DNA of 64,000 bases. Origin: Archaeoglobi archaeon JdFR-42 (GTDB lineage Archaea; Halobacteriota; Archaeoglobi; Archaeoglobales; JdFR-42). The stretch covers positions 18,805-82,804 of the forward strand of contig MTND01000009.1 in assembly GCA_002010305.1 (NCBI GenBank). The letters are read 5' to 3'. The notes under the pieces are model-generated. The model did not search any database, was not told where the DNA came from, and was given only the letters and a program-made list of their open reading frames with translations. This document shows, in pieces, positions 8,740 to 11,212 of this stretch. Each line of letters starts with the position of its first letter. Positions within the stretch are counted from its first letter, which is position 1. The position numbers and the translations under genes were made by a program.

Positions 8740-8794
8740 GCGAGCAAAATTTATATAAAGCTAATTTAACACTGTTAAACAATGGTGAGTTGTA

Positions 8795-9037
8795 ATGACC
8801 GATGTGAAACCTCACAAAACTGTGGACTGTATAGGTTTATTCTGTCCCGAACCAATATTCAGAACGAGAATAGCCATGGATACACTTAAACCTGGCGAAA
8901 TACTGGAAATATGGGCAGATGACCCTGCCTCAGAGAGTGATATTCAAAGCTGGTCCAAAAGAACTGGCCATGAATTACTAAAGATTGAAAAGATAGATGG
9001 TAAATTCCGATTCCTAATCAGGAAGGTGGAAAAATGA
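8795..9037 (+). CDS. TusA/SirA-like sulfurtransferase
   Basis: 80 aa with the CIGLFCPEP (CPxP) active-site motif. Confidence 0.8.
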   Translation: MTDVKPHKTVDCIGLFCPEPIFRTRIAMDTLKPGEILEIWADDPASESDIQSWSKRTGHELLKIEKIDGKFRFLIRKVEK

Positions 9038-9399
9038 GCAAGAAGAAAATACTGTATGTGCAGACGAGTGGCGTAGATACTCCCGAGAGGCTGTATGCCC
9101 CTTTTATCCTTGCCATGACTGCGAAAAGTATGGATATGGATGCAATCATTTATTTTGTAATAAAAGGAGTTACAGTAGTTAAAAAAGGAGAGGCTGAAAA
9201 AATAAAAATTGGAGAATTCCCAACTCTTGAAGAGATTATGCAACAGGCTATTGAAAGTGGTGTTGAGTTAATGGTCTGCGATAGAAGTGCCGATTTACTG
9301 GGGATTGATAAAGGAAACATAATCGATGGAGCGAAAGTGGTAGGTGCTGCAACCCTCAATGACTTAGTTTTAGAGGCAGATGCCACGATGTTCTTCTGA
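9034..9399 (+). CDS. DsrE/DsrF-like sulfur-relay family protein
   Basis: 121 aa with a DsrE-like pattern (ILYVQTSG..., conserved Cys in ELMVCDRS). ATGA overlap with the tusA-like gene. Confidence 0.65.
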   Translation: MSKKKILYVQTSGVDTPERLYAPFILAMTAKSMDMDAIIYFVIKGVTVVKKGEAEKIKIGEFPTLEEIMQQAIESGVELMVCDRSADLLGIDKGNIIDGAKVVGAATLNDLVLEADATMFF

Positions 9400-9409
9400 A
9401 GGTGGTGAT

Positions 9410-10586
9410 ATGAACGGCAACCGTTAAAGGGTATCTGGATTATACGGCAGGATGTCCTGTCGATAAAAGGGTTATTGAAGCTATGATGCCCTATTTAACA
9501 GAGAGAATTGGTAACCCTTCTTCTCTCCATTCTCCTGGTCTTGAAGCAAGAAAAGCTCTTGATGAATCCAGAGAAAGGATTTCGAAATTTATTAATGGGG
9601 ATGGTGGTGATATTATATTTACCTCGGGTGCCACGGAATCCAACAATATTGCTATAATCGGAACGGCCATGCGAAATTCAGGTAAAGGGAAACACATCAT
9701 CACCTCCTCTATAGAACACATGTCAGTGATTAACCCCTGCAAATACCTTCAGAAACAGGGATTTGAAATAACATACCTCCCTGTAGACAGAAACGGTAGG
9801 GTAGACCCGGACATTGTAGAACAGGAGATACGAGAGGATACCATACTCATCTCCATTCAACATGCCAACGGAGAAATTGGCACCATTCAGCCTATAGAAA
9901 AAATAGGTAAGATTGCATCAGAGAGAGATGTTTATTTTCACATAGATGCTGTGGCATCCCTCGGAAAAATCGAAGTAGATGTGAAGAGAGCTAATGTTGA
10001 TCTCCTTACCATTTCTTCCAACGATATTTATGGACCAAGAGGTGTAGGGGGATTATACATCCGGAAAGGTGTTAAAATTCAACCCGTAATGTTTGGCGGA
10101 GGGCAGGAACAGGGTCTGAGAAGTGGAACCGAGAACGTTGCAGGAATAGTCGGGTTTGGAATTGCTGCAGAGATTATGAGAAAGGAGTACAAGGGTGAAG
10201 CTGAAAGACAGGCCAGATTACGGGATAAACTTATTGCAGGAATACTTGAGAACATAGAAGAGTCGTACCTGAATGGGCATCCAACTGAACGATTGCCCAA
10301 TAACGCAAATCTAAGATTTAGCTATATAGAGGGAGAATCTCTCATACTGAACCTGGATATGGAAGGGATCTATGCATCAACTGGCTCTGCTTGTTCATCC
10401 AAAACTCTTCAACCAAGCCATGTCCTGATGGCCATTGGTCTGAAACACGAGGAGGCCCACGGTTCTCTTCTATTCACACTGGGGAGAGGGACCACAGAGG
10501 CCCAAATTGATCATGTTATGGAAGTTTTACCAAAAGTAGTGGAAAAACTGAGGGAGATTTCTCCCCTGTATAAAAAGGAGAGGTAA
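9410..10586 (+). CDS. NifS/IscS-like class V aminotransferase-fold protein; 5' frame break and no PLP-binding lysine
   Basis: The ORF 9483..10586 has NifS motifs ([25 protein letters not shown]). The conserved N-terminal [24 protein letters not shown] is encoded in the same frame from 9426, but an in-frame TGA lies at 9411-9413. The only SD-preceded ATG (GGTGGTGAT-ATG at 9410) is in the -1 frame and stops after 5 codons. The usual SGHK PLP site reads SSND. Confidence 0.8.
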
Positions 10587-10588
10587 AC

Positions 10589-11053
10589 ATGTATAGTGAG
10601 AAAGTGATGGAGCATTTTCGGAATCCGAGAAATGTTGGTGAGATCGAGAACCCCGATGGTGTTGGTACGGTGGGAAATCCTGTATGCGGTGATTTGATGA
10701 CAATCACCATAAAGGTAAACGGAGATGTTATCGAGGATGTGAAATTTAAAACATTTGGATGTGGAGCTGCCATAGCCACCAGCTCCATGGTGACAGAGCT
10801 GGCAAAAGGGAAGACCCTTGAAGAGGCTGTGAAAATCAGTAAACAAACGGTTGCTGAGGCTCTTGGAGGATTACCACCCCAGAAAATGCATTGCTCCAAC
10901 CTTGCCGCTGATGGATTGAGACGTGCAATTGTAGACTACCTTAAAAAGAGGGGGGAGATGGATCGAATAAAAGAGTTAGGCCTTGAAAGAGATCTTGAAA
11001 AGATGGAGAAAGGAGAAGAAGATGACGAACACGAAGAAACGTGTGAAACATAG
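10589..11053 (+). CDS. iscU: Fe-S cluster scaffold protein IscU/NifU-like
   Basis: NPVCGD, GCGAAIA and HCSNLA cluster-ligand motifs, with an acidic C-terminal extension. Confidence 0.9.
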   Translation: MYSEKVMEHFRNPRNVGEIENPDGVGTVGNPVCGDLMTITIKVNGDVIEDVKFKTFGCGAAIATSSMVTELAKGKTLEEAVKISKQTVAEALGGLPPQKMHCSNLAADGLRRAIVDYLKKRGEMDRIKELGLERDLEKMEKGEEDDEHEETCET

Positions 11054-11062
11054 AGCGCAAGG

Positions 11063-11073
11063 TTTCTTTTTTT
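11063..11073 (+). terminator. oligo-T tract downstream of iscU
   Basis: TTTCTTTTTTT begins 10 nt after the TAG stop, in a convergent intergenic region. Confidence 0.4.
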
Positions 11074-11212
11074 ATTCTAAACATATCTTCCCTAATCCAT
11101 TAGAGTTATCCAACTGAAAACGATTTCAAGGGGGTTGTTAAGTTCTGGAATAGTTGCATCCGGTAATAATTCCAAAAGTAAAACATCTAAAATAACTTTC
11201 AAAACAATATCA

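Follow-up and report, generated by a model that had tools for sequence, protein, structure and literature searches.

Putative persulfide carriers TusA and DsrE are linked to a lysine-less IscS-IscU pair in an Archaeoglobi archaeon and in related archaeal loci

Background

How is sulfur supplied for iron-sulfur (Fe-S) clusters in anaerobic archaea, and what role does an inactive IscS of the Archaeoglobus fulgidus type play in it? Both questions are raised by 4 plus-strand genes, tusA, a dsrE-like gene, an iscS-like gene, and iscU, which span positions 8795-11053 of a 64,000-nucleotide (nt) stretch of DNA from the Archaeoglobi archaeon JdFR-42 (contig MTND01000009.1, positions 18,805 to 82,804; the whole stretch is called the window hereafter), as seen in the list of open reading frames (ORFs) and by direct reading. 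The minimal ISC-type (iron-sulfur cluster) system, MIS, consisting of MisS and MisU, reportedly goes back to Garcia et al. 2022. We identified a large branch of the MIS family without the catalytic lysine of IscS and found it specifically and persistently linked to 2 persulfide carriers, TusA and a DsrE3A-like protein. From this genomic linkage, TusA and DsrE are probably tied functionally to the lysine-less IscS-IscU pair. That the tusA-dsrE-iscS-iscU operon would represent a cysteine-independent version of the MIS Fe-S assembly machinery, supplied through a DsrE-to-TusA relay, is a proposition that we hold to be evenly balanced.

IscS without the cofactor lysine

An initial annotation of the window had read an Asp in place of the lysine that holds pyridoxal phosphate (PLP) in IscS enzymes, had described the persulfide loop as retained, and had pointed to an inactive A. 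fulgidus IscS with the same Lys-to-Asp change; all 3 points were borne out. In place of the SxHK motif of IscS enzymes, the window protein has SSND, its Asn-Asp being encoded by AAC GAT at 10020-10025. Aligned with Escherichia coli IscS (MG1655), it carries D, N, and A at the positions of K206, H205, and Q183, respectively. It retains counterparts of E. coli H104, D180, and C328, with the flexible Cys loop STGSACSS located at 10377-10400 and its Cys codon at 10392-10394. The window IscS has a full-length class-V aminotransferase fold and shares ~70% identity with the crystallized A. fulgidus IscS2 (4EB5, residues 6-388 against 2-382), and the motif at the lysine position and the Cys loop are identical between the 2 proteins (4EB5, 4EB7, and 4HVK). 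PDB entry 4R5F is an engineered D199K variant of A. fulgidus IscS2. The A. fulgidus IscS has no desulfurase activity owing to the Lys-to-Asp change, and its Cys ligates a [2Fe-2S] cluster on IscU; Methanosarcina acetivorans IscS1 is likewise without the lysine (PMC7585200). By analogy with the A. fulgidus orthologue, which provides the experimental basis, the lysine-less window IscS is predicted to be unable to desulfurate cysteine.

Asp was present at the lysine position in 117 of the 120 best homologues, with 1 Glu and with the sole Lys belonging to an engineered mutant, so the substitution is not due to chance. The Asp-type homologues with a named source included Archaeoglobus, Ferroglobus, Thermoplasmata, Bathyarchaeia, and Thaumarchaeota, and, as judged from these matches, Asp-type IscS forms a very large family in archaea and is no rarity. 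The closest matches of the window IscS were 3 sequences at 76-80% identity, followed by metagenome-assembled genomes (MAGs) of Archaeoglobus at 70-73%. The protein missed the NCBIfam equivalog cutoffs for NifS (TIGR03402, 510 vs 530.75) and IscS (TIGR02006, 449.5 vs 643.2) and passed the broad subfamily model NF002806 (333 vs 304).

Other lysine-less classes carry Gln, Tyr, or Ser in the Lys column (loci L021, L035-L043, L054, L060, and L109-L165), and all of them have Ala at the column of E. coli Q183. Across the aligned IscS sequences, this column holds Gln in 64 of 64 Lys-type proteins, compared with Ala in 51 of the 54 proteins without the lysine. In the Asp and Gln classes, Asn occupies the H205 column and the Thr column of the phosphate site is kept; the Tyr and Ser classes have lost this Thr. 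H104, D180, and the Cys loop are always kept, with the Cys present in every sequence covering the loop in all lysine-less classes. Seen in this alignment, the PLP pocket of lysine-less IscS is remodeled in a coordinated manner.

A single origin of all lysine-less IscS was considered and not retained: they formed 1 clade in a first neighbor-joining tree, which was not upheld by a second tree made with the defining columns removed and then bootstrapped. In the latter, the Asp class received 96%, the group of Gln, Tyr, and Ser classes 80%, and the union of both 12%. The tree topology is compatible with loss of the lysine once or twice, both being possible.

Linkage of the carriers to lysine-less IscS

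The initial annotation had proposed that sulfur reaches IscU through a persulfide or sulfide relay rather than by cysteine desulfuration, pointing to the tusA-dsrE-iscS(ND)-iscU arrangement of the window. We surveyed this co-occurrence in 2 samples of loci, and the linkage was found to recur. The IscS-anchored sample included 1 genome per species and 80 loci, in which six-frame ORFs were searched with the 4 window proteins and the IscS sequences were aligned. A tusA and/or dsrE gene was located directly upstream on the same strand in 9 of 10 Asp-type loci compared with 0 of 61 Lys-type loci (Fisher p = 1.3e-10, a value inflated by the shared ancestry of the loci). Both carriers were identified in MAGs labeled Archaeoglobaceae, 'Halobacteria', and Promethearchaeota and in 1 bacterial-labeled MAG; tusA alone was found in an Archaeoglobus MAG, a Bathyarchaeia MAG, and an unclassified archaeon, and dsrE alone in 2 Methanoperedens-type loci. 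Among the other lysine-less classes of this sample, the Tyr class (FTGHYFYAP, Aquificota, 6 loci) had a TusA gene 3' of iscU in 2 of 6 loci, the Ser class (LSGISLGAP, Desulfobacterales, 2 loci) had a TusA-like gene directly upstream in 2 of 2, and the Gln class was represented by 1 Dehalococcoidia locus without a carrier.

The DsrE-anchored sample was obtained by a metagenome scan and comprised 80 loci whose DsrE is 62-83% identical to that of the window, 57 of them evaluable and the rest too short. The iscS-iscU pair adjoined DsrE in 44 of the 57 evaluable loci and occurred in 2 gene orders, with tusA-dsrE-iscS-iscU in 27 loci (L167 being assigned by hand) and iscS-iscU-tusA-dsrE in 17. Every adjacent same-strand IscS with a covered motif was without the Lys: the first order had Asp, and Asn once, and the second had Gln (LAGNQFYGP). 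No iscS or iscU was found in the remaining 13 DsrE loci, which were evaluable on both sides. Clustering of the neighboring ORFs across 55 loci revealed no fifth conserved gene, whether reductase, carrier, or regulator; therefore, the linkage of the 4 genes itself is what is maintained. With the E. coli ISC locus as the comparison for a full ISC gene set, none of hscA, hscB, fdx, iscA, and iscR adjoined the window operon in Pfam searches, and none was a conserved neighbor in the 55 related loci. In A. fulgidus, IscS2-IscU has a DsrE-like ORF directly upstream.

Because the linkage is specific to lysine-less IscS, survives rearrangement of gene order, and spans distant lineages, these comparisons clearly strengthen the case for a carrier relay whose direction and sulfur species are tentative proposals.

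Several loci showed further neighbors of the carriers or of the module. Window-type DsrE and TusA adjoin a ThiF-family E1-like enzyme in L153 (402-2240) and a PALP (cysteine-synthase-like) enzyme with a DtxR-like regulator in L095 (3731-5402), which suggests that these carriers also feed other sulfur-incorporation pathways. On the minus strand of L091 (1-855), a fragment of a Lys-type IscS is divergent to an adjoining tusA-dsrE-iscS(Asp)-iscU module; the 2 kinds of IscS are therefore neighbors in some organisms. In A. fulgidus (L081, AE000782.1 507338-518486), dsrE-iscS2-iscU is preceded by FeoB-like fragments and a gene with an iron-dependent repressor domain and is followed by a gene for a 112-aa helix-turn-helix protein. 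Superoxide dismutase-like genes near modules were identified in 6 loci (L167 1516-2172 and 5 others) and rubrerythrin-like genes in 4 (e.g., L121 4418-5050), in both cases from N-terminal sequence only.

Carrier proteins and scaffold

Residues 5-77 of the window TusA align with E. coli TusA (1DCJ/3LVJ_C, 3e-13 to 5e-13), and the protein scored below the E. coli TusA equivalog cutoff (NF001423, 63.2 vs 78). Its CPEP motif contains Cys17 (codon 8843-8845). Cys12 (codon 8828-8830), a further cysteine 5 residues N-terminal of Cys17 in the motif D-C-x-G-x-x-C-P-x-P, was kept in 52 of the 65 cluster TusA sequences covering the column (69 aligned), compared with Ala in E. coli TusA; Cys12 could serve as a resolving thiol. 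Searches with Pfam and neighbor clustering of the related loci revealed no tusBCDE or mnmA gene in the window locus.

The putative sulfur-binding residue of the DsrE-like protein is Cys82 (codon 9277-9279, motif VCDRS), which was invariant in an alignment of 23 diverse DsrE homologues from a family of 3731 clusters at E < 1e-10. The closest solved relative is 3MC3 (5e-19), in which the Cys is aligned, and PMC11094781 identifies this structure as Saccharolobus solfataricus DsrE3A. The same source describes DsrE3-type proteins as homotrimeric, with binding of sulfane sulfur or thiosulfonate and preferential donation to TusA, and it reports binding of thiosulfonate or persulfide and transfer to TusA for Metallosphaera cuprina DsrE3A and bacterial DsrE3B/C. 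Neither the window neighborhood nor the related loci contained hdr-like (sHdr) genes; the neighbors of DsrE were iscS and iscU. The A. fulgidus DsrE was formerly annotated as 94 aa, and a 119-aa form is on record.

With the ligand motifs CGD, GCGAAIA, and HCS present in its translation, the window IscU is, by its sequence features, an ordinary scaffold. It carries an acidic C-terminal tail of ~30 residues (window 10970-11053), ending in a conserved Cys (EETCET in the window, with GELCEGV and GEYCEA as further forms); L001, L002, and L081 share the tail. This Cys was considered as a general relay site and rejected, the tail being limited to an Archaeoglobus-like subclade. In the Methanoperedens-type loci L004 (7153-8493) and L007 (2382-3725), IscU is fused to a full pyridine-nucleotide-disulfide oxidoreductase domain (Pyr_redox_2 flavoprotein, 1e-42), and in both loci dsrE and iscS of the Asp type lie upstream of the fusion; the fused domain is a possible source of the 2 electrons that persulfide sulfur needs. 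Shorter C-terminal extensions of IscU were seen in L008 and L025, and a LAGLIDADG intein splits IscU at the first ligand cysteine in L155 (5546-7108; GNPIC / intein / GDLM).

Organization of the operon

The features of the window locus are collected in Table 1. The plus-strand run of 4 genes and the ATGA coupling between the first 2, both claimed in the initial annotation, are seen in the sequence, with the start-stop overlap of tusA and dsrE at 9034-9037. The gap from the dsrE stop to ATG 9410 is 10 nt, and that from the iscS stop to the iscU start is 2 nt. A Shine-Dalgarno sequence precedes every one of the 4 gene starts by direct reading, with ATG 9410 as the iscS start. The TATA-like element falls inside the 55-nt gap that separates the preceding gene from tusA, the T-rich run likely acts as an archaeal oligo-T terminator, and the gene 3' of iscU is convergent. 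Given the ATGA overlap, the 10-nt and 2-nt gaps, the Shine-Dalgarno sequences, the TATA-like box, and the terminal T-run, tusA-dsrE-iscS-iscU has the appearance of an archaeal operon complete in itself. By Pfam, it is flanked by housekeeping genes of unrelated function, including radical SAM, TrkA-N/DHH, zinc alcohol dehydrogenase, and DeoC-type aldolase genes.

Table 1. Features of the tusA-dsrE-iscS-iscU locus (positions in the window)
Feature	Position	Strand	Description and evidence
TATA-box-like element TTTATATA	8750..8757	+	Putative archaeal promoter, 38 nt 5' of the tusA start; direct sequence reading
tusA	8795..9037	+	80-aa TusA-family sulfur carrier; Pfam TusA 1.2e-26, 92.8 bits vs cutoff 28.6
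dsrE-like	9034..9399	+	121 aa, DsrE3A-like; Pfam DsrE 5.9e-20, 72 bits
Ancestral iscS start ATG 9410 and short ORF	9410..9427	+	5 codons, MNGNR then stop; three-frame translation
iscS body, lysine-less (MisS-type)	9426..10586	+	Pfam Aminotran_5 1.4e-71; PDB 4EB5 3e-170
iscU	10589..11053	+	154 aa; Pfam NifU_N 9.8e-51, 171.6 bits; TIGR03419 205.1 vs cutoff 187.9
T-rich run TTTCTTTTTTTATT	11064..11077	+	After the iscU stop; direct reading

Interrupted 5' end of the window iscS

The ORF list had placed iscS at 9483-10586; its stop stands and its start does not, with IscS homology beginning at ~9426, upstream of ATG 9483, and with ATG 9410 as the ancestral start. A strong Shine-Dalgarno sequence, AGGTGGTGA at 9400-9408, precedes ATG 9410, and a 13-nt insertion, AACGGCAACCGTT at 9413-9425, directly after this ATG, which the initial annotation had missed, puts the iscS body out of frame. 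The frame of the body is closed by TGA 9411-9413 and has no ATG, GTG, or TTG before ATG 9483, which is preceded by only a weak G-rich stretch. The 2 closest relatives, L168 and L170, have 76-78% IscS identity, the whole neighborhood in common, and an intact 386-aa iscS, and in the alignment they read ATG AAG GTT TAC ATG GAT without the insertion. The insertion-bearing sequence was identified in 5 assemblies and 2 haplotypes, 1 assembly being 2 single-nucleotide polymorphisms from the window; the insertion is therefore real in the population, and an assembly error is unlikely. A programmed frameshift or a non-canonical iscS start was rejected as the main reading, with relatives lacking the 13 nt, no slippery motif evident, and no usable start codon ahead of 9483. 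The predicted window product would be either IscS minus ~19 N-terminal residues or nothing.

It is possible, though in our estimate doubtful, that the module is decaying in the window organism, the insertion making iscS a pseudogene or the gene of a crippled truncated protein, and that the locus is a relic and not a working system. This view agrees with the absence of the insertion from the 2 closest syntenic relatives, with the lack of any ATG, GTG, or TTG between the in-frame stop and ATG 9483, and with the recurrence of the insertion in several assemblies, which is not the pattern of random assembly error. Against decay, no interruption is seen in the remaining 367 codons, which have 76-80% identity to intact relatives, the flanking tusA, dsrE, and iscU are intact, and reinitiation at ATG 9483 or 9486 is possible.

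Proposed relay and alternative routes

In the proposed relay, sulfane sulfur, for which polysulfide, thiosulfate-type compounds, and other persulfide donors are possible sources, would be captured at Cys82 of the DsrE3A-like protein and would move from DsrE to Cys17 of TusA, reportedly the preferred direction in DsrE3-type proteins. TusA would then pass it to the loop Cys of IscS or to IscU, the reverse of the IscS-to-TusA transfer of E. coli, and S(0) would be reduced to sulfide during cluster building, with no cysteine needed. In the E. coli complex, TusA Cys19 lies ~4 Å from IscS Cys328 (PMC2854127).

Several observations weigh against this relay. We compared the interface columns of IscS (W45, E49, and D52) with those of TusA (R27 and R31; E. 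coli numbering): the TusA-binding residues of IscS are inconsistently conserved and show no consistent co-variation with TusA, E49 being mostly Lys or Arg in the Asp class with TusA R31 mostly Asp, and the Gln class being acidic at both. A. fulgidus is without an adjacent tusA, 1 Asp-type locus (L006) has neither carrier, some lineages carry 1 carrier only, and 13 of the 57 evaluable DsrE loci are in other contexts, e.g., adjoining a PALP enzyme or a ThiF-like E1. Phylogenetic independence is not given among the related loci, and the Fisher p overstates the evidence. The window copy of iscS may itself be N-terminally truncated or inactive through its 5' frameshift, and lysine-less IscS-IscU may need no sulfur source other than free sulfide, which is the published view of A. 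fulgidus (PMC7585200).

The last point amounts to a direct-sulfide model, in which lysine-less IscS-IscU builds clusters from free sulfide, a compound abundant in the anaerobes concerned, and IscS is a structural partner and ligand only. We consider this model unlikely on balance, somewhat more so than decay. It follows the published A. fulgidus reading, with IscS as a ligand and not a sulfur donor (PMC7585200), and is in line with the use of sulfide by SMS, the other minimal archaeal system, with the DsrE/TusA pairs found beside the ThiF-like E1 and PALP enzymes, and with the lack of a tusA adjoining the A. fulgidus genes. However, it leaves unexplained why carrier linkage is restricted to lysine-less IscS (9 of 10 Asp-type vs 0 of 61 Lys-type loci), why the genes persist together in 2 gene orders without another conserved neighbor, and why they are translationally coupled.

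A reverse or protective flow, with TusA and DsrE taking sulfur from IscS-IscU or its cluster for other targets or clearing stray persulfide from the loop, appears improbable. The E. coli direction is from IscS to TusA (PMC2854127), and sulfur transferases build bidirectional networks according to PMC11094781; lysine-less IscS, however, has no known persulfide-generating route and nothing obvious to donate, and DsrE3-type proteins are described in that same source as donating preferentially to TusA. It is very improbable that the window IscS is still a PLP-dependent cysteine desulfurase using another lysine: the pocket residues equivalent to E. coli H104, D180, and T76 are kept, but none of Lys206, His205, and Gln183 is retained anywhere in the clade, the A. 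fulgidus protein, which is nearly identical, reportedly has no desulfurase activity (PMC7585200), and the NifS and IscS equivalog cutoffs are missed.

The recurrence of the carrier genes beside iscS-iscU across many archaea, and only where the lysine is missing, suggests an undescribed cysteine-independent sulfur feed into Fe-S assembly. More tentatively, TusA (often bearing a C-x4-C pair), the DsrE3A-like protein, lysine-less IscS, and IscU might form a distinct and widespread sulfur route for Fe-S clusters, in which the pseudo-desulfurase would receive persulfide from the relay. We could only cautiously extend such a route to Archaeoglobi, Methanoperedens, Bathyarchaeia, and Asgard archaea, with TusA-linked lysine-less variants in Aquificota and Desulfobacterales. 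If the relay route is real, it may reflect ISC/NIF-type machinery from before cysteine desulfurase chemistry, or repeated reversion, and 'cysteine desulfurase' annotations in archaeal genomes need a different reading. The Lys-to-Asp IscS itself is already known from A. fulgidus, and the new part is apparently the linkage of carriers to lysine-less IscS and not the loss of the lysine. No description of a conserved TusA/DsrE3A-like partnership with lysine-less IscS-IscU was found in the literature searched, in line with the initial annotation, which had regarded the arrangement as undescribed; the search included neither Garcia et al. 2022 nor the primary papers on A. fulgidus nor the Tanabe 2019 TusA review. 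The proposed relay is a concrete hypothesis on 4 small, easily expressed proteins, 1 of which already has crystal structures.

Comparison with known systems

The closest characterized system is A. fulgidus IscS2-IscU (AF0564/AF0565), which has ~70% full-length IscS identity to the window, the same motif and Cys loop, iscU immediately downstream, and a DsrE-like gene directly upstream. It differs in having no adjacent tusA, whereas the window tusA is translationally coupled to dsrE, and in its iscS, which lacks the 5' frameshift of the window copy. The A. fulgidus IscS-IscU pair has been treated as a two-protein system, with the neighboring DsrE gene unmentioned (PMC7585200, PMC13066941).

Like MIS, which occurs mostly in anaerobic archaea, the window encodes an IscS-like and IscU-like pair without HscAB, ferredoxin, IscA, or IscR. 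MIS is described as a cysteine desulfurase together with a scaffold, without accessory components (PMC13066941, PMC12192291), and a 2026 review states that it 'does not contain additional components' (PMC13066941). In contrast, the window 'desulfurase' is without the catalytic lysine, and 2 sulfur carriers are its conserved partners, contrary to the statement in PMC13066941.

The E. coli IscS-TusA complex (3LVJ/3LVK) brings together the same 2 families, and the loop Cys of IscS, the CPxP Cys of TusA, and the nearby TusA aspartates (E. coli D45 and D51; PMC2854127) are conserved in the window. E. coli IscS, however, makes its sulfur from cysteine, and the flow is to TusA for tRNA thiolation and molybdenum cofactor synthesis, whereas the window IscS presumably cannot make persulfide, any flow is probably toward IscS-IscU, and W45 and E49 are not conserved. 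In the DsrE3A-TusA relay of Sulfolobales (M. cuprina; 3MC3), as in the DsrE3B/C-TusA relays of the bacterial sHdr pathway, a DsrE3-type protein carrying an active-site Cys is paired with TusA, and the window has such a pair too. These relays are hdr-linked and feed dissimilatory sulfur oxidation, whereas the linkage of the window pair is to genes of Fe-S assembly in anaerobes. SufE and SufU of the SUF system share with the window the concept of a dedicated small persulfide carrier between a sulfur source and an Fe-S scaffold, but they belong to unrelated protein families, and the source in SUF is an active cysteine desulfurase, SufS.

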